Source of the DNA: Escherichia phage vB_EcoM-ZQ1
DNA length: 64,000 nucleotides
Strand: one strand, 5' to 3'
Sequence record: MW650886.1
Part shown: positions 7,253 through 13,398 of the stretch, piece by piece
Numbering within the stretch: the stretch's first letter is position 1
Layout of the letters: each line of letters starts with the position of its first letter
Program-made: the position numbers and the translations under genes
Notes under the pieces: model-generated
The model's input: only the letters and a program-made list of their open reading frames with translations
Told to the model about the DNA's origin: nothing
Database searches by the model: none

Positions 7253-9014
7253 AACGCACCTCCGGCTCCACAGTTACAGCACCGATGCGGAGCACCTGAT
7301 TCTGTGTGGCCTGAATGTTCTGGTCAAGACCGTCTGGAGACACAATTATTGTCACACCCTCAGTGTTGTAGTTAGATACTATGATACGCTGGAGTTCAAC
7401 AACGCCAGTCGCATAATCAACCGTTCCAACAGCTTGTACCAGATATTCCTTGGTTGTGTCTGTTGTACTCACCTTGTACATATTCAGGACACCACTGACG
7501 TCGCGTATGTAGTAAGTGAATTCGACCTCGGCCGGAAGCGGCTTAAACCCACTGATACGCACAGAACCAGACGCAATCGAGCGCCCATAATCGAATGTGA
7601 AGCTGTCCAGTACCCCATAGTCTGGCTTGAAATGGCGCTTATACTTCACAGAAGTGATGTTTGACACTATCGATCTGTCCATGTCGGTGATGGCCGACTG
7701 TAACTGCTCTTTATCGAACAGTTCGTCGAATCCTTCTAGATTCCCCAAACCCCAGTTAACAACACCGTTCTTCACGACTGTCTTCAACTGCTCTTCGGTA
7801 TAGGACGTGGAAGTCGGATCCCAGAACACGCGGGTGGTGACATCAACATAAGTCAGTTCAGCGTCGACAATCTTGGGTGTGATCGTGCCCACATTGTACT
7901 TGTCTAACGTCGCCACGATATCTGCCTTCTCAGCGTCCGAGAGCGCCTCACCAACAGAAGGTATCACAGCAATGTAAACGTATCCGGAGTCAGGCGGAGA
8001 GAGCGTGTCGCCGCCATATGCTTTGGCGCGGGAGACGTTGGAGAACAGACGCTCGGTCAACACAGCATAATCGACTTCGGCTACCGCCGCACCCTCAGCC
8101 TGATAAGCCAGCGGAGCAAGGCGCTTGATGTCCTCAATGCTCTCTGGGTCCGCACCGCCGGAAGAACGTTCTGACACCAGCTCAACATCTACAAGGTTGA
8201 ATCCCCCGATGGAAGACGCGGAGGACAAGGCAGTGATGTCATTGCCGTCTGCACCAGCTGTCTCCAGATACTGGAGGTACACGACGTTCCCGTCTTCTAC
8301 TCGCTTACAGATATACCCATCACCGAATTCGAACGTGTACATCCCGTCCAACCCCAGCTCAACGAAGTAGAGTTGCGCATACTGGCTCAAATCGAACGGG
8401 CTGACATATCGTGAGAAGGTAGACCGCACGTCAGATGTCTCAGATTCCTGCACCTGCACCACCATATGGTCGATGTCCACGGAAGAAGATGGGATCACAT
8501 AGGTAGAGATCGCGCTGCCTTCCACATCATAGGACTTGTACAGCCAGTTACCCTGTATGAGTTTGATGTTCTCGAACTTGTAAGAGCCGTCTACAAGAGA
8601 GGCACTCACAGGTTGGTCAACCGTGAAGTTATAGGATTTGCCATCCTTCACCCCAATGAACATCGCGCGGCGATCCATTACAATCGTTTCTGGAGCCGTG
8701 CTGGCGTCATATGGAGTGACTGTGACGTTTGCGTACAGGTACGCTGCCTGGTAGTTGTGAGGGGTGTAAGACAAGAACCCAGCCGCAAGACCGACATTAG
8801 AACGCTGTTGAGCAGAGTGAAGATGGCTTTCGCCATTCAGCATGTTCTGCATGAACCCGATAGAGTTGGCATCCGAGGCCAAGATACGCACGATTGCACT
8901 GAGACCAGAACCTTCAAAGTCATAATCCTTGAAAGTTGGATCAGCTTTCATGCGCTTCTTGATAAGATACTCGAAAGCCCTGACATCGAGTGAAGGGACT
9001 GTTTGCGTGGCCAT
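7236..9014 (-). CDS. Baseplate wedge protein (gp6 / baseplate J-like), assignment by size and context
   Basis: About 590-aa ORF; track start is a TTG at 9065, more likely ATG at 9014 (MATQTVPSL...); CTAAATA motif upstream; first gene of the minus-strand structural operon. Confidence 0.4.
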   Translation of the reverse strand: MATQTVPSLDVRAFEYLIKKRMKADPTFKDYDFEGSGLSAIVRILASDANSIGFMQNMLNGESHLHSAQQRSNVGLAAGFLSYTPHNYQAAYLYANVTVTPYDASTAPETIVMDRRAMFIGVKDGKSYNFTVDQPVSASLVDGSYKFENIKLIQGNWLYKSYDVEGSAISTYVIPSSSVDIDHMVVQVQESETSDVRSTFSRYVSPFDLSQYAQLYFVELGLDGMYTFEFGDGYICKRVEDGNVVYLQYLETAGADGNDITALSSASSIGGFNLVDVELVSERSSGGADPESIEDIKRLAPLAYQAEGAAVAEVDYAVLTERLFSNVSRAKAYGGDTLSPPDSGYVYIAVIPSVGEALSDAEKADIVATLDKYNVGTITPKIVDAELTYVDVTTRVFWDPTSTSYTEEQLKTVVKNGVVNWGLGNLEGFDELFDKEQLQSAITDMDRSIVSNITSVKYKRHFKPDYGVLDSFTFDYGRSIASGSVRISGFKPLPAEVEFTYYIRDVSGVLNMYKVSTTDTTKEYLVQAVGTVDYATGVVELQRIIVSNYNTEGVTIIVSPDGLDQNIQATQNQVLRIGAVTVEPEVRYVQRS

Positions 9015-9054
9015 GATAATCTCCATCACCTGAGTTTGAATATGGTGTTGAAGA

Positions 9055-9061
9055 TATTTAG
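9055..9061 (-). promoter_or_regulatory. Late-promoter-like CTAAATA motif upstream of baseplate gene
   Basis: Minus strand reads GGCTAAATATCTTCAACACC about 40 nt upstream of ATG 9014. Confidence 0.35.
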
Positions 9062-9368
9062 CCAACGGGAATCAAAACGCTCGCGCGCGTTTAATTTATT
9101 CGAATATAACTCGCGAGGGGGCTGACGCCCTCGCTCGTAACACCGCCCTGTGCGGGCAGCACCATTCCACAGCCATGGAGGCTGCTTCTCGTTGTTCGTT
9201 GACACTCACAACTCGAAGGGCACTGCGTTAGGATACAGTTTCTTGATGTTGTAGAAAAGTAGTTTTTACCTATTAATAAACCGAACTCCTATTTTGTTGG
9301 TCTTTAATTCAATAACACTTGCACGAATATAATAGCCCGGACAATCAACCGTTATCAAGGAACCTCTC

Positions 9369-9941
9369 ATGCATATCAACACTGCTGTATTAAAACACAT
9401 CATCCCTTTGTTAGAAAAATATGAAGGGAAAGTAATGTCTGAAGTGCCATTTGAGAAAATTCGCACCGAAATAAAGCACCTGACAAATAAAGATGTCAAT
9501 TACCGTCGTATCCTTTCTTCTGGGCTAGAACTTGCAAAGTCTGACTTCAAAACATCTTCGACATTCTCTTTTAATATCGATGCCACTACGACACTAATAG
9601 ATGAATTAACGCAGTCATCGCAATCTCGCCGCGACCGCTTTCGTCATTTGTGTGTTTCCAATGATTTCCCCAGCACCCGCGTTGGGATCAAATTGGAGGC
9701 GATTCGTTCTGACATTTGCTTCACGATAAATTATATTGTCGAGCCAGGCTCCCAACACATTTATTTTGCCGCAGTGATCGGTTTCTATGGCACTTCTATC
9801 AATGGGTGGGCTGAGCGCGTTGAATTAAAAGAGACACTGAACAAACACAGCACTCCTTCCACTCATTATATGTCACAGGCCGCTGCTCGTGAATATGTGT
9901 ATCTGATCGAGCGCGATGTGAAGTTAAAAGTGGTAAAATAA
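9369..9941 (+). CDS. Hypothetical protein
   Basis: 190-aa ORF with SD AAGGAACC; diverges from the minus-strand structural operon; no recognisable motif. Confidence 0.45.
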   Translation: MHINTAVLKHIIPLLEKYEGKVMSEVPFEKIRTEIKHLTNKDVNYRRILSSGLELAKSDFKTSSTFSFNIDATTTLIDELTQSSQSRRDRFRHLCVSNDFPSTRVGIKLEAIRSDICFTINYIVEPGSQHIYFAAVIGFYGTSINGWAERVELKETLNKHSTPSTHYMSQAAAREYVYLIERDVKLKVVK

Positions 9942-9998
9942 CGCTTTATTCAATAAAGAATTGCAGTAAAGTTAGTTGCATGGAAGGGAGGGAACACT

Positions 9999-10145
9999 AT
10001 GTTTTACATGATGTTACTCCTCATCCTTCTGATCGGGATTACCTTTACTCTCCTGGGTCTACCCGATCAGTCCGGTAAACAGTCGCCCACTTCGGCGCAT
10101 CCGGTTTTGTGCGAAGGTTCGTCCGCACTGCTGTGGGCAGTGTAG
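9999..10145 (+). CDS. Small hydrophobic peptide (47 aa, one predicted TM helix)
   Basis: ATG preceded by SD GGAGGG at 7 nt; MFYMMLLLILLIGITFTLLGLP...; below the 60-aa cutoff of the ORF track. Confidence 0.3.
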   Translation: MFYMMLLLILLIGITFTLLGLPDQSGKQSPTSAHPVLCEGSSALLWAV

Positions 10146-11923
10146 CTCAAAGAGGAGAGGACTTTTCAAATTAGCTGGGCTGCAGTAAAGTATTAAGCGT
10201 GAGGCGAACAACGCATCGAGTTAGGCATCTAAAGCCGACCTCGCTAATCCCAGTCTCAGGGGCATGCGTGAATAGAGGCGTGATATCCACCTTGCATGGT
10301 GTCAGTGGACGCACTTGACCGTCGGAGAACGAAACTCCCTGTTGTAGCGTGATTAGCTCAGAATCAGAGAGCACCCTGTTGGCAAGTCGACACCAACATA
10401 TAAGGGGAGGTCGGGGGCGCTAATCTCCATCACGCCGGCAACATTATGAGTCTTCCACAGAGGGTTCATAATGTTGCGTCAAAGGGCAACAAGGTTCCTG
10501 TTGGTTGAATTAACTTGATTCATAGTTCCTACTGATCTTCCCGGATTCGAAGGAGCACCAACAGGCGAGGCCGGATGCGTAAGTTCCGGTAAATCGATGG
10601 TGATACCCTCGCCAACAAAAATAAAAGGTTTTATCAATAACGGGTTACAAAGTATAGTTAACCCACTGAAGCGAAAAGCTGTTTGGGCATTAGACAAACA
10701 CTTCGATGTGAACCCAGGACATGGCGTCTTGTGCTCAAACAGGTTTTCGTTTTCGTTGTGAGTGACTTTGCGGGTTTTTAGAAACTGACCAAGCAAATAA
10801 CTGCTAATGATTCCGAAGTTCTGATGGCGGCGTAACAGCCTATAAGTCAGTGAGGTCTTCCGATTCCTCATCACCAAATTCGGCGCACTAAAATAGACGG
10901 GAGGGTGTGATTAATAATCTCCCGTCGACAATGCCGTTATATCTGACTGTCCAAAGGGGATAAGCTCCTGAGTAAGCAGAGGTGGGTTGCCTAAGTCAGA
11001 TGGGATGTAAGGTCAGCGCTGGCCAAGCATTTGGGTTCGACTCCTAAAAACGGCTCCACATCTTTGAGGATATTCTCACGAGTATCTTGAAAGATGTGAG
11101 CGAAGTCTTGCCATCAGCCCTGATCCCTGGCAGGTGAAGGGCACACAAATCGAAGTGCCTTGACAATTTATCTTAAACCCAAAGGTTGATCTACAAATTG
11201 GACGGCCAATCCGGTGGACGATAACAGCATATTGGGCTATACTGTTGAGTCAGGGCACTTCGATTTGTGAACTTGAGAGAGCGTTGGGTGAAATAGACCA
11301 TGCCTTGCAGATTGCGATGCCTACACATTCCGGACACTGGTGGGCACCAAGAAGAACTCAGTAGCAGACGAGCCATCAGGGTTAGCTACCCGGCGCGGCG
11401 AGGACTGGGAGGCCGAACTAAGGGGAAACCCGAGACAGGCGTAGTATTCTCAAGTTCACAAAATGAAGAGCATTTAAAGAGTTCGATTCTCTTTCAGGCC
11501 ATTCGTGGTGTGATGTGAGTCATGAATGTTCTTCATCTTTGGGTGATTCTATGTTGCCGGGCTATCAACCCATGCTTGCTAGAGCAACCAGCCAGCCTCG
11601 TTTGGTCCGAGCGTTAGAGGACAAGTTGCTTCTACATGGAAGCTGCGAGTTGCGACATTGGTTGCAACTTTGATGGCTCTGGATTTTATAAACCATGTCT
11701 ATGGGTGACGCGGGATCTTTAGTACCAGAGCTATCAAAGTTGTGTCCAACCCGATCTTACAAGCCCGTATCCCGGTCTGGTTAAGACTTGTAAGTGGAAA
11801 GCCCTGGAAAAATAAACGCCTGTGGCGAGGCTATGGTGCAAGCCAAAGACCCACAGAAGCGCATGCCGTGAGGCAGCACAAACAGGCATGCATGAACTGA
11901 TCATGTACAAACGGGATAAAGGG

Positions 11924-11952
11924 TTGACAGTCCTTGGTTGGTACACAATAAT
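11924..11952 (+). promoter_or_regulatory. Possible sigma70-type promoter upstream of tRNA-Met (TTGACA ... AATAAT)
   Basis: Consensus -35 TTGACA at 11924..11929; AT-rich -10-like element follows, but spacing to the tRNA 5' end is tight. Confidence 0.25.
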
Positions 11953-11954
11953 TT

Positions 11955-12031
11955 GGTCCTGTAGCTCAGTCGGTTAGAGCAGTGAACTCATAATTCATTG
12001 GTAGTTGGTTCAAATCCAACCAGGATCACCA
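11955..12031 (+). tRNA. tRNA-Met (anticodon CAT; could also be Ile-lysidine type)
   Basis: Hand-folded cloverleaf: acceptor GGTCCTG/CAGGATC, D-stem GCTC/GAGC, anticodon loop CTCATAA, T-arm GTTGG-TTCAAAT-CCAAC, encoded CCA. Confidence 0.85.
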
Positions 12032-12283
12032 TATTAAGGGGTGTGAAACATGACACTCCGACAAACACAGTAAGCGTTGCAGCCAGCTGTGTATAAAATG
12101 GGATGACTCCACATCGGAAACGATGCCCCAACTTCCAGAAATGGTCGGGCGCAAAGCCTGTAAAGTTCCAGGAGATCGAACCAGAAGGCACTGGTCGCCA
12201 GTTAACCAATCGGCGCTGAGAAGCGCGGGGAGTTGGGCTACGGCAGATCAAATGCTCAATCGGGTGTGAAGCCCGTCCAAATT

Positions 12284-12372
12284 GGAAGGTTGCCCGAGAG
12301 GTTTAAGGGACTCGACTGCTAATCGAGTGGGGCTTTTAGCCCCCGAAGGTTCGAATCCTTCACCTTCCGCCA
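12284..12372 (+). tRNA. tRNA-Ser (anticodon GCT), type II with long variable arm
   Basis: Acceptor GGAAGGT/ACCTTCC, D-stem CCC/GGG, anticodon loop CTGCTAA, variable arm TGGGGCTTTTAGCCCCC, T-arm GAAGG-TTCGAAT-CCTTC, encoded CCA. Confidence 0.85.
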
Positions 12373-12588
12373 AATTACGGTCGTGACTTCCTGAAGAGTT
12401 AGAAGATGTGCATGTCGACTCTCTCGTAATCGGGTGTTTAGGAAGTTAAGAAAATCGCGGCGAGGATAGTGAAATGCAAATAGCTTTCTCTACGTCGACG
12501 ACTTCAGGTTCGACTCCTGACGCGCTCTCCCATAGGGTAGTACCAGTGCAAGCGTGTAGTCTTTCAACCCATCCCATCGATGTGGTGT

Positions 12589-12620
12589 AGCCGGATATCC
12601 TATCCGGCTTTCTTTTTATC
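12589..12620 (+). terminator. Intrinsic terminator downstream of the tRNA cluster
   Basis: Stem AGCCGGATA / TATCCGGCT with loop TCC followed by TTCTTTTTATC. Confidence 0.6.
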
Positions 12621-12741
12621 CCTGTCTTATTATCTTCTTATCGACCCAAGCATGTCCTCCTTTATCGTAGTTTGTTCAATGATACAAAGGGGGTTTAAAA
12701 TTTAACCGTTAACCCCCTATCATAGATTTGAGGATACACTA

Positions 12742-13398
12742 ATGCGTAATGTTTCTATCTGGGAATTGAACGAAGTGATTTCCCATGACACCCCTCCAAT
12801 TGTCAGACTCTTCCGATACAAGGGTGTCAAGCGCACTCTGAATGAGTTCCTGTCGCCTGTTTACGTCTACCGTGATGGCGGGTTCTTCTGCCGCGATAAA
12901 AACATCCCGAACCTTGGTATGACGTTTGATTTGAGTATCAAAGGCCAGGTTGTATTGATGGGTTATGGTAGCCTGGAACAATCTGAGAAAGGCCAGGGCG
13001 CTCCACTTATGGTCTTCGGTTCGTTTGAACAAGCCGTGCACTGGCTGATCAGAAACGGATATGATTTCTATGGCGAAGAAAGCGCCAATTGGCGTCGTCG
13101 CAAGGTCAAGTCTGTTGATCTGGTGGATTTGAATCTGATGTACCAGGCCATGGCTCGCGAGTACGAAAAGAATCTCGTCAAGCCTGTCGCTCAGGAGAAC
13201 AATGTTGTTAACGACGCAACTGAGTCTTCTCATCATGACGTGAACATCGTTCCAGCCTGTGAAACGAAAGCGCCGACACCACCTACTCCTCCGACCAGTC
13301 GTGTTCTGAATGATCAGGGCGCTCCGGTAAAACAAAAGGTCAAGAAGCCGACTTTCATGGAAAACATGATGAAGTTCCTTCGTCTGTTCAAGAAGTAA
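12742..13398 (+). CDS. Hypothetical protein
   Basis: 218-aa ORF with SD GAGGAT; the overlapping antisense ORF 12739..13335 is judged a shadow. Confidence 0.45.
   Translation: MRNVSIWELNEVISHDTPPIVRLFRYKGVKRTLNEFLSPVYVYRDGGFFCRDKNIPNLGMTFDLSIKGQVVLMGYGSLEQSEKGQGAPLMVFGSFEQAVHWLIRNGYDFYGEESANWRRRKVKSVDLVDLNLMYQAMAREYEKNLVKPVAQENNVVNDATESSHHDVNIVPACETKAPTPPTPPTSRVLNDQGAPVKQKVKKPTFMENMMKFLRLFKK

Follow-up and report, generated by a model that had tools for sequence, protein, structure and literature searches.

What is the function of a perfect inverted repeat in a stretch of phage DNA that appears to encode no protein? The window analyzed here is a 64,000-nucleotide stretch of Escherichia phage vB_EcoM-ZQ1, an Agtrevirus-like phage of the Ackermannviridae, and the first-pass annotation of this window had claimed that CACAAATCGAAGTGCC (11144-11159) is exactly complementary to GGCACTTCGATTTGTG (11254-11269). 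The pair had been read as either a long RNA stem closing a structured domain or a paired operator. In GenBank, this kilobase is left blank or filled with small "hypothetical proteins."

An inverted repeat of 21 bp in an ORF-free stretch

The exact 16-bp complementarity was borne out, and the repeat was found to extend to 21 nt per arm (11144-11164 and 11249-11269) with 84 nt between the arms and 95% complementarity, the sole non-Watson-Crick position being a T·G. By chance, perfectly complementary 16-mers no more than 400 nt apart would be expected ~0.006 times per window (64000 x 400 x 4^-16), and the repeat far exceeds what chance would produce. In the whole window, the three longest inverted repeats all fall at 11.1-11.75 kb. 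The setting was described correctly as ORF poor, as the repeat lies in an ORF-free stretch of ~1.3 kb (10.66-11.95 kb).

The finer details of the first-pass annotation stood only in part. Both arms were said to be preceded by GGG; GGGCAC indeed occurs at 11139-11144 and 11253-11258, but on the left the GGG sits 2 bases before the arm, and on the right it overlaps the arm. The small hairpin GGCAC...GTGCC within the left arm is real in the window and is lost in the Kuttervirus relatives (GGGCAACGC...AGTTCT). The hexamers TTGACA (11160-11165) and TATACT (11238-11243) are present in the loop, but they are 72 bp apart instead of the 16-18 bp that a sigma70 promoter needs, both differ in the Kuttervirus and Ag3-type copies, and the promoter scan paired TATACT only with a weak TGGACG (9/12). 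Neither the hexamers nor the left-arm hairpin is conserved, so these details were unsupported, and the loop has no promoter function.

The loop also has no coding function. The "hypothetical protein" annotated here in PQ306799 was rejected because both overlapping ORFs are broken in relatives: the ORF at 11191-11376 on the minus strand has stops or frameshifts in 13 of 16 distinct relatives, and that at 11300-11518 on the plus strand in 14 of 18. An intrinsic terminator at the right arm was rejected as well, since the arm is followed by AACUUGAGAGAG and not by a U-run, and the terminator scan was silent here. The complementary G-rich ends led us to consider the a1/a2 repeat of a retron; no reverse transcriptase was found in the flanking ORFs, in which Pfam scans revealed gp6-like baseplate and PALP domains only.

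Covariation of the two arms in related phages

The region is carried by 232 phage records, the closest relative being AV101 (99.5% identity over 11100-11300), and its modules have been gained and lost independently among relatives. A pattern scan of IMG/VR returned 15 loci, all on contigs of 154-162 kb, a length that matches the genomes of these phages, and a metagenome scan returned 1 locus. The searches that we ran found no homolog outside the Ackermannviridae and, in the E. coli genomes and plasmids searched, no homolog of the part of the region from the repeat to 11954. The genome-reduced "selz" mutants retain the region, which says little because the selz method targeted annotated genes only. 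Several records are linearized inside the region, and no statement was found that these points are physical ends.

As a check, the first-pass annotation had proposed a search of related genomes for the repeat and for compensatory changes in it. The arms stay complementary in 24 distinct relatives. Across three lineages, 9 of the 21 pairs of the helix formed by the arms (P1) showed compensatory change and 98.1% of cells were paired, whereas sliding the partner by 1-3 columns left only 20-48% of cells paired. Four pairs were changed on both sides in sets of 17 and 24 distinct variants. The divergent copy in phage Ag3 was missed by BLAST and found by the covariance model (41.7 bits, E 7e-9). In this copy, the core AAAUCGAAGU/ACUUCGAUUU of the window is replaced by AAAGUAGAGU/ACUCUACUUU, so that in Ag3-type phages compensatory changes affect four successive pairs of a P1 core that is invariant elsewhere. 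The length of P1 is 21-22 bp in all three lineages despite the sequence change. Weak spots occur at the base of P1 (C·U in the Taipeivirus types, A·C in SJ3 and EP75), and one mismatch is tolerated in Ag3. The diversity is shallow, as three lineages are represented and the compensatory changes amount to few independent events.

The one-sided changes in P1 gave 18 G·U cells and 2 A·C cells on the plus strand. Since one-sided changes give G·U on that strand, the helix is RNA and is read in the direction of the tRNA genes. Folding energy was low in each of the three lineages (z = -7.2, -9.5, and -4.8), although thermodynamics alone does not tell the plus from the minus strand. Together, the compensatory changes and the G·U/A·C asymmetry support the first of the two original readings, and on comparative grounds the arms of the inverted repeat form a genuine RNA helix that evolution has maintained and that closes one domain.

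P1 closes the first domain of a two-domain RNA

The domain closed by P1, M3, spans 11144-11269 on the plus strand (~126 nt), with the left arm (11144..11164) as the 5' strand and the right arm (11249..11269) as the 3' strand of the helix. For the 84-nt interior (11165..11248), alignments and folds gave a predicted fold only, and the minimum-free-energy fold of Ag3 differs; in the window and Vi01 types, a three-way junction with helix P2 (UUAUC/GAUAA) and hairpin P3 is predicted. Several motifs of the interior are kept in the three lineages: UUAA(A)CCC, AAGG(G)U, ACA, CGAUA, ACAA/ACAG, and GGG. The conserved single-stranded motifs are likely to form the working surface of M3, which may face a partner protein, the ribosome, or a tRNA-related factor.

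A second domain, M4 (11271-11455, 185 nt, plus strand), adjoins M3 one base on. Its closing helix of 8 bp, the fourth helix of the RNA, pairs ACUUGAGA (11271..11278) with UCUCAAGU (11448..11455); 100% of cells are paired, and 3 pairs vary between G-C and G-U or between U-A and U-G. The interior of M4 (11279..11447) folds into four hairpin arms (helices 5-10), in which 12 pairs showed compensatory change. In Ag3-type phages, the whole of M4 is swapped for an 11-nt hairpin, GCAGGTACTGC.

M3 and M4 together comprise 10 helices and 71 pairs, 16 of them with compensatory change, and 99.3% of cells were paired, a value that was reached in 0 of 500 shuffle controls. RNA-type covariation was seen in nine further helices beside P1. 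The structure as a whole had 167 G·U but only 2 A·C cells, and 1692 of 1704 cells were canonical on the plus strand compared with 1527 on the minus strand. The mosaic junctions in relatives coincide with the base of P1. These results establish the helices, the strand, and the domain boundaries of a two-domain, 10-helix RNA in which P1 joins the ends of M3.

A further partner for the left arm was rejected: the similar CACTTCGATGTG at 10699-10710 becomes CATAGCGATGTG in several Kuttervirus variants while the arms are unchanged.

The RNA lies between a tmRNA-like gene and two tRNA genes

A sigma70-type promoter-like site, TTATCA-16-TATAGT, was found at 10631..10658 by the site scan and the alignment of relatives. 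It is kept as TTATCA/TTGTCA...TATAGT in 15 of 16 aligned sequences, the exception being 0507-KN2-1, and is the only well-conserved site of the sigma70 type seen among the aligned relatives. It is followed by a tmRNA-like region (10678..11058), by a 19-bp hairpin (11057..11098) directly 3' of the CCA end of the tRNA-like module, and by a small spacer hairpin, CUUGCC...GGCAGG, at 11107..11134 before P1. The spacer hairpin was read by eye, as were its variants: CUUGCC/GGCAGG is matched by CUUGUU/GGCAAG, and CUUACC/GGCAAG has one mismatch.

Downstream of M4, further covarying hairpins continue up to 11950. A further domain, M5 (11591..11954, plus strand), contains a 25-bp hairpin at 11658-11749. 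M5 is the best-conserved part of the non-coding stretch, and phages of Dickeya and Serratia have it too; when their loci were searched with the covariance model, unrelated long hairpins were the only matches. A long-range pairing between M4 and M5 (11370-11383 with 11666-11679) was rejected because it is lost in the Taipeivirus types, in which the M5 hairpin arms change and M4 does not. M5 is followed by tRNA-Met (CAT) at 11955..12031, 686 nt downstream of the right arm, tRNA-Ser (GCT) at 12284..12372, and an intrinsic-terminator-like hairpin with a T-run at 12589..12609.

The promoter-like site, the tRNA genes, and the terminator-like site all lie on the plus strand. The site at 10631..10658 would be the start and that at 12589..12609 the end of an RNA operon running from the conserved promoter through the tmRNA-like gene to tRNA-Met and tRNA-Ser, and host RNA polymerase would then make the RNA early, within a polycistronic stable-RNA transcript. 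No transcript data for any Ackermannviridae phage were found in the literature searched, and transcription, RNA ends, and abundance are therefore deduced here. Our search for work on transcription, non-coding RNA, or tmRNA in Ackermannviridae likewise found nothing relevant, and a 2024 review of the family is silent on tRNAs, promoters, and non-coding regions.

At the gathering threshold, Rfam 15 matched only the two tRNAs in the whole window. At E <= 10 (10400-12800 and 10600-11300), the matches within 11100-11500 were microRNA/snoRNA-type noise far below threshold. The RNA is a previously undescribed and highly structured non-coding RNA of Vi1-like (Ackermannviridae) phages, encoded between a tmRNA-like gene and tRNA genes.

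Role of P1

P1, the helix that closes M3 in the two-domain plus-strand RNA, probably has an architectural role within an apparent stable-RNA operon. In such a role, P1 would insulate the folding of M3, stack coaxially on the M4 stem, and give M3 double-stranded, nuclease-resistant ends. This architectural function in a new phage RNA is the likeliest reading, and P1 may in addition serve as an RNase III processing stem.

It is conceivable, if rather doubtful, that RNase III cuts the two-turn double-stranded RNA of P1 to excise M3 or to split the tmRNA-like/tRNA-like part from M3-M5, which would be compatible with the architectural reading. The size of an E. coli RNase III substrate is ~20 bp, and in E. 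coli rRNA operons the RNase III sites lie in stems flanking the 16S and 23S rRNA. As in these processing stems, the flanks of an RNA domain pair in P1 over at least ~20 bp, in what would be a polycistronic transcript with tRNAs. The strands of P1 flank a discrete module whose mosaic boundaries match the helix base, the length stays at 21-22 bp in each of the three lineages as the sequence varies, and the setting is an apparent multi-RNA operon. On the other hand, many stable RNAs keep long closing stems uncut, and the mismatch in Ag3 and the weak basal pairs in the Taipeivirus types are tolerated. Unlike the rRNA stems, P1 encloses 84-94 nt and not kilobases and has no sequence relation to them, and its cleavage is hypothetical.

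A conformational switch appears unlikely. A left-arm-like copy, L' (UCACAAAAUGAAGAGC, 11456..11471), follows M4 directly, and the resulting inverted repeat (11255-11278 with 11448-11471; 24 nt, 88% complementary) overlaps the right arm, the last 6 nt of which, TTTGTG, can alternatively pair with 11457-11462. The right arm could then alternate between the left arm and L', the second state extending the M4 stem to 15-24 bp and altering exposure, processing, or multimerization. The CRCAAA of L' and the base of the right arm covary, which makes L' a partner for alternative pairing: CACAAA/UUUGUG/CACAAA of the window type becomes CGCAAA/UUUGCG/CGCAAA in Kuttervirus and CGCAAA/UUUGCG/UGCAAA in Ag3. 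Since the base of P1 can pair with L' instead, the helix may be dynamic and not purely architectural. However, the competition covers only 6 nt of P1, the extended alternative helix of Kuttervirus has a U·U mismatch, L' diverges beyond CGCAAAA in half of the Kuttervirus variants, and RNAalifold favors P1 with the 8-bp M4 stem. The shared 6-mer might equally be a recognition motif.

A DNA-level element, consisting of two inverted protein sites (the paired operator of the first-pass annotation) or a cruciform at a replication origin, is very improbable. The region does lie at a gene-orientation switch, with genes on the minus strand to the left and on the plus strand to the right, near the cumulative GC-skew minimum (~9-10 kb), and the concerted change of the three motif copies could mirror co-evolution with a binding protein. 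However, G·T is accepted in a single orientation in P1 and in the full structure, which a DNA site would not allow. Complementarity is retained along the whole 21-bp arm, even at the four consecutive core pairs changed in Ag3, which is predicted by helix maintenance and not by a conserved recognition sequence, and the nine neighboring helices show the same RNA-type covariation. The paired operator was thus unsupported.

That the arms are terminal inverted repeats of a MITE-like module of ~126 bp is hardly credible: size and arm length fit and the module boundaries are sharp in mosaic relatives, but the module is found at a single locus, with the core 10-mer exact only in both arms and at one unrelated site, its flanks (GAAGGGCA and AACTTGAG) have no target-site duplication, no empty site was found, as relatives lacking the known sequence carry either a divergent copy (Ag3) or an altogether different region, and the G·U asymmetry points to RNA.

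Comparison with other RNAs

The tRNA cluster of phage T4 encodes stable RNAs, species 1 and 2 (rnaC/rnaD), of roughly 100-140 nt, which are co-transcribed and processed with tRNAs and whose function is unknown. The RNA described here is, by description, likewise a phage-encoded structured RNA near tRNA genes; it belongs to another phage family and appears multi-domain and much longer. In Y RNA and YrlA, the two ends pair into a long stem, which closes a large loop or module bearing the functional surface, and P1 resembles that stem; unlike for those RNAs, there is no Rfam match and no recognizable tRNA-like T-loop inside M3.

GOLLD and ROOL are reportedly large, ornate, many-helix RNAs of phages and prophages, typically encoded next to tRNA genes. 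Their 3' part is better conserved than the variable 5' part, and their function is unknown. We entertain, with considerable reserve, that a new large, ornate phage RNA of ~0.8 kb (11.14-11.95 kb), or of up to 1.3 kb with the tmRNA-like part, has P1 as its first helix and is the counterpart of GOLLD/ROOL in enterobacterial phages. Like GOLLD and ROOL, this RNA would be encoded in a phage beside tRNA genes, with a variable 5' half (M3 and M4) and a 3' half (M5) that is strongly conserved even in Dickeya and Serratia phages, and it may act with its tmRNA-like and tRNA-like neighbors on host translation or ribosome rescue. As for a single transcript of >500 nt with many conserved helices, ten covarying helices were found over 11144-11455 and more covarying hairpins beyond them up to 11950, and the modules are gained and lost independently. 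The covariance models of GOLLD and ROOL gave no match even at E <= 10, the host range here is that of enterobacterial phages, and 11.14-11.95 kb as one molecule is a conjecture.

Vi1-like phages find wide use, and are engineered, as biocontrol agents against Salmonella, E. coli O157, Klebsiella, and Dickeya. The covariation corrects the annotation of the stretch in such phages, showing conserved RNA helices one after another on the strand of the tRNA genes, and defines a new RNA family, which is a candidate for Rfam. Phages AV101, CBA120, and S117 are all genetically editable and offer a tractable system for asking the role of large structured RNAs beside phage tRNA genes, a question that GOLLD and ROOL raise as well.

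The tmRNA-like neighbor

The tmRNA-like region upstream of the repeat, and not part of it, was recovered by ARAGORN at a lowered threshold and is apparently unreported. Like tmRNA, it has a resume-codon context, AAAUAACU followed by GCU, and a 10-codon tag frame, ANDSEVLMAA with a stop codon (10803-10835), and downstream of the tag a tRNA-like cloverleaf with a T-arm and encoded CCA end (10934-11058). The tag has the same length as the enterobacterial ANDENYALAA and shares the AND...AA pattern. The tag stop codon lies in a hairpin loop, the stem of which changes from CUGA.../...UCAG to CUGG.../...CCAG in relatives. The tag itself varies among ANDSEVLMAA, ANDNTFLAVA, and ANDDVVLMAA (the last with two stop codons), with synonymous changes.

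The G3·U70 acceptor pair is absent from the candidate stems GCUGUUU/AAACGGC and GCCGUU/AACGGC. The element scored 22.3 bits with RF04321, compared with a gathering score of 47, and RF00023 matched its T-loop only. Nothing in tmRNA corresponds to M3, and in prophages and plasmids the tag module is present but M3 is not. The module is common to lambdoid prophages and to non-mobilizable plasmids of ~95-112 kb, which are possibly phage-plasmids. The shared tag module points to interference with, or exploitation of, trans-translation by enterobacterial phages.

An inverted repeat in a conserved non-coding stretch

The first-pass annotation described two 16-mers (11144-11159 and 11254-11269) as a perfect inverted repeat that could be an RNA stem closing a structured domain or a paired operator. 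The two 16-mers are exactly complementary, and with their extension the arms are 21 nt each (11144-11164 and 11249-11269), with one T·G and 84 nt between them. By simple arithmetic, about 0.006 perfect 16-nt inverted repeats within 400 nt are expected per 64 kb, and the three longest inverted repeats of the entire window are all inside 11.1-11.75 kb. The folding energy was far better than that of shuffled sequences on both strands (z = -4.9 on the + strand and -6.5 on the - strand). Since both strands fold well, energy alone cannot pick the relevant strand. In the records of Salmonella phages dinky and bering (compared loci L002 3159-3179 and L003 3159-3180), the depositors had labelled the right arm 'repeat_region', with no product or note.

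BLAST placed the window in the Ackermannviridae, genus Agtrevirus or near, with 99.5% identity to AV101 over 11100-11300 and 94-97% identity to A221, RPN242 and CECAV_050. The left-hand ORFs encode gp6-like baseplate proteins on the - strand, and the inverted repeat sits within about 1.3 kb of ORF-poor sequence. This stretch is bounded on the left by a sigma70-type promoter-like site, TTATCA-16-TATAGT (10631-10658, + strand), and on the right by tRNA-Met (11955-12031, + strand) and tRNA-Ser (12284-12372, + strand), the latter followed by a terminator-like hairpin (12589-12609, + strand). The promoter-like site is kept in 15 of the 16 aligned sequences, the exception being 0507-KN2-1, in which the homologous stretch is broken by an HNH insertion. 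The best sigma70 match of the region, TTGACA-17-AATAAT (11924-11952, 11/12), is only partly conserved; its end is just 2 nt short of tRNA-Met, too near that gene for a normal start site, and the segment may alternatively form a hairpin AAGG...CCUU.

The non-coding stretch is kept in 284 phage records of Kuttervirus, Agtrevirus and Taipeivirus, and its 3' third also in Limestonevirus (Dickeya) and Miltonvirus (Serratia) phages. It is a mosaic, with blocks independently retained, replaced or split by insertions. IMG/VR and a metagenome collection contained extra copies in Ackermannviridae only. The Rfam search found only the two tRNAs and assigned the repeat region to no family, the literature search found nothing on this non-coding region, and the words tRNA, promoter, intergenic and non-coding are all absent from a 2024 Ackermannviridae review.

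Covariation of the P1 helix

The first-pass annotation had proposed a search for compensatory changes in relatives, and such changes were found in the helix formed by the two arms (P1). Among 17 distinct repeat-region variants, the window type (CACAAAUCGAAGUGCCUUGAC / GUCAGGGCACUUCGAUUUGUG) and the Kuttervirus type (ACGCAAAUCGAAGUUCUCUGGG / CCCAGAGAACUUCGAUUUGCGU, a perfect 22-bp helix) differed on both sides of four P1 pairs; the enclosed loop is about 40% diverged and contains indels. A covariance model built from these variants detected a copy in Shigella phage Ag3 (compared locus L015, 1773-1905; 41.7 bits, E = 7e-9), where BLAST gave no match. The 10-bp P1 core AAAUCGAAGU/ACUUCGAUUU, invariant until then, is AAAGUAGAGU/ACUCUACUUU in Ag3 and EspM4VN, with four consecutive pairs replaced on both sides; the core was read in these two phages, 13 further records also matching the Ag3-type copy.

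Across the three lineages, 9 of the 21 P1 pairs had compensatory changes, which amount to few independent events. Standard pairs made up 98.1% of cells (single pair positions in single sequences), versus 20-48% when the 3' partner was slid by 1-3 columns, and the covariation score was reached by none of 500 column shuffles. The P1 covariation thus supported the reading of the repeat as an RNA stem closing a structured domain.

One-sided changes in P1 gave G·U on the + strand (18 G·U versus 2 A·C cells); pair 11160/11253 is U·G or C-G in Taipeivirus-type and Kuttervirus copies and C-G in the Ag3 type. Since a - strand RNA or a DNA palindrome would read the 18 G·U as A·C mismatches, these results showed that P1 is a conserved RNA helix of the + strand.

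Domains M3, M4 and M5

When 24 distinct sequences were analyzed by RNAalifold over 11135-11480, the model contained 71 pairs in 10 helices, with compensatory changes in 16 pairs. In this model 99.3% of cells were paired, versus 30-45% when slid, and there were 167 G·U versus 2 A·C cells. Canonical cells numbered 1692 of 1704 on the + strand versus 1527 on the - strand.

P1 closes domain M3 (11144-11269, + strand). One base after the 3' strand of P1 begins the 8-bp closing helix of M4 (ACUUGAGA/UCUCAAGU, 11271-11278 with 11448-11455, + strand). M4 (11271-11455, + strand) is a 185-nt five-way junction with 12 covarying pairs and four hairpin arms, which carry most of the covariation. M3 and M4 behave like domains of a single RNA, not like unrelated genes: in Ag3-type phages the entire M4 is replaced by an 11-nt hairpin, GCAGGUACUGC, while the flanking sequence continues on both sides. 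The P1 base is itself a mosaic junction at which two unlike upstream sequences join exactly (...GACAUC before CACACAAAUCG in the 0507-KN2-1 type and ...CCCCCAC before AACGCAAAUCG in the S117/Ag3 type).

The short motifs UUAA(A)CCC, AAGG(G)U, ACA, CGAUA, ACAA/ACAG and GGG of the M3 interior are common to the three lineages. For the window and Vi01 types, minimum-free-energy folding predicts a common three-way junction, with a P2 (UUAUC/GAUAA in the window versus UAUAU/GAUAU in Vi01) and a P3 hairpin, whereas another fold is predicted for Ag3. Two details of the first-pass annotation were not supported: the TTGACA and TATACT hexamers of the loop are 72 bp apart and missing in other lineages, and the mini-hairpin GGCAC/GUGCC of the left arm is not conserved.

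Conservation within the non-coding stretch is highest in M5 (11591-11954), where even Dickeya phage Ds5CZ keeps long invariant runs and Serratia phage 3M is 78% identical. Several of its hairpins have visible compensatory changes, such as CUUACAAG/CUUGUAAG versus CUUGCAAG/CUUGCAAG and GAUGGCUCUGG/CCAGAGCCAUC versus GAGGAUACUGG/CAGUGUCCUC. The GenBank records of several relatives (loci L002, L003 and L004) are linearised inside the stretch, bering at about 11463 and AV101, dinky and heyday at about 11681, a break that falls inside the left arm of a 25-bp hairpin.

Searches of 5,426 E. coli genomes and 72,556 plasmids found no homologs of M3, M4 or M5, the one exception being a 77-nt tRNA-like 3' half (11457-11533). 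A tRNA-like 3' half at 11462-11500 (AAAGAGTTCGATTCTCTTTCAGGCCA, T-arm and acceptor strand), for which a recognisable 5' half is absent, occurs in some relatives only; within 11.1-11.96 kb it alone has a homolog in E. coli plasmids (about 110 kb).

Together, the results showed that a conserved + strand helix closes M3 and abuts a second domain, M4, in a helix-rich non-coding stretch directed towards the tRNAs. P1 belongs to a new structured RNA that is specific to the family, as one of its helices, and is an entry point to an RNA cluster of about 1.3 kb missed by current annotations.

Proposed role of P1 and alternative readings

Most probably, the stretch would form a polycistronic stable-RNA operon, transcribed from the early-type promoter conserved at 10631-10658. 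P1 would be an architectural closing helix that insulates M3 folding and provides double-stranded ends, and the conserved M3 loop motifs are the likely working surface. The closest analogies in working are with the processing stems of rRNA operons, with stable RNAs from the T4 tRNA cluster, and with GOLLD and ROOL, large tRNA-adjacent phage RNAs; as in GOLLD, the 5' part of the stretch is variable and the 3' part (M5) strongly conserved.

P1 could also serve as an RNase III processing stem, a role compatible with the closing helix. Its length, held at 21-22 bp (two turns), and its position flanking a discrete module speak for this role, which we nevertheless consider rather unlikely.

Just past M4 lies a left-arm-like copy, L' (UCACAAAAUGAAGAGC, 11456-11471, + strand), with which the right arm and the M4 stem can pair over 24 nt (88%). 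The basal hexamer covaries three ways: CACAAA / UUUGUG / CACAAA in the window type and CGCAAA / UUUGCG / CGCAAA in Kuttervirus, with UGCAAA as the third copy in Ag3. The competition between P1 and L' is limited to the six basal P1 pairs; in some relatives the weakest pairs are found here too, with C·U in Taipeivirus types and A·C in SJ3 and EP75. The overlap may represent branch migration at the helix junction, or it may be a conformational switch.

A DNA-level role for the arms, as an origin or as the paired operator suggested initially, is contradicted by the strand asymmetry of G·U versus A·C; its sole hint is a nearby cumulative GC-skew minimum (9000-10000), coinciding with the point where - strand structural genes give way to + strand genes, which fits a nearby replication origin or terminus, or simply transcription-linked skew. 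A terminator was rejected because a U-run is absent after the P1 stem, and mobile-element repeats because a second copy and a target-site duplication are absent. The ORFs at 11191-11376 (- strand) and 11300-11518 (+ strand) were rejected as coding, having stops or frameshifts in most relatives; record PQ306799 lists the former as a hypothetical protein.

A tmRNA-like element upstream of P1

ARAGORN called a tmRNA at a lowered threshold at 10678-11058 (+ strand), with a tag ORF at 10803-10835; a tmRNA-like element was also recorded at compared locus L037 (3781-4620). The element has the resume context AAAUAACU followed by GCU, a 10-codon tag (ANDSEVLMAA-stop) whose stop codon is inside a hairpin loop, and a T-arm with encoded CCA (11030-11058). 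The tags of relatives are ANDNTFLAVA-stop or ANDDVVLMAA-stop-stop, with synonymous changes, and the flanking hairpins have compensatory changes. The element does not qualify as a tmRNA: its score is 22 bits, with the threshold at 47, and the G3·U70 pair is lacking. In an exhaustive 2014 survey (PMC4131195), mycobacteriophages and Bacillus phage G are the only phages listed with ssrA, and the tag sequence was absent from the papers searched.

The tag module, without M3-M5, was found in 559 of the 5,426 E. coli genomes. In strain 55989, for instance, it is part of a lambdoid prophage and lies between the Q antiterminator and holin genes, downstream of a promoter-like TTGACA...CACTAT and a hairpin-plus-T-run read from the sequence, and is followed by a 59-nt match to the tRNA-like end of the tmRNA model (E = 4.8e-6). 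The module also occurs in non-mobilizable plasmids of Klebsiella (about 108-112 kb) and Escherichia (about 94-97 kb), and in one 1.4-Mb E. coli record.

The 3' part of the element is a 125-nt tRNA-like cloverleaf (10934-11058) with acceptor stem GCCGUU/AACGGC, a long first arm, T-arm UUGGGUUCGACUCCUAA, discriminator U and the encoded CCA; ARAGORN called its 3' 77 nt as 'tRNA-Leu' at a lowered threshold only. Between genera, identity is about 95% in block 10929-11075 but only 75-80% in its flanks. Position ~10930 is an insertion hot spot: relatives have 91-380 extra nt here, of which some resemble tRNA or match the prophage version exactly. Klebsiella phage 0507-KN2-1 lacks the tRNA-like block through a deletion, and its HNH endonuclease gene lies inserted within the first hairpin of the tmRNA-like region (~10742-10754; locus L013, 798-1358).

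On the opposite strand, a 132-aa ORF (10479-10877, - strand) overlaps the promoter and the tmRNA-like region and is annotated as a hypothetical protein in S117 (orf170), CECAV_050 and SeKF_19; it is probably spurious because the alignment has 1-nt indels between relatives inside it. Some Kuttervirus phages carry tRNA-like genes just upstream of the conserved promoter (loci L002 2383-2470, L005 1680-1767 and L009 1166-1235); these have unusual anticodon loops (called 'tRNA-???' by ARAGORN, with anticodons of 2 or 4 bases) or take the form of a weak tRNA-Ala, which is annotated as tRNA-Ala in SeKF_19.
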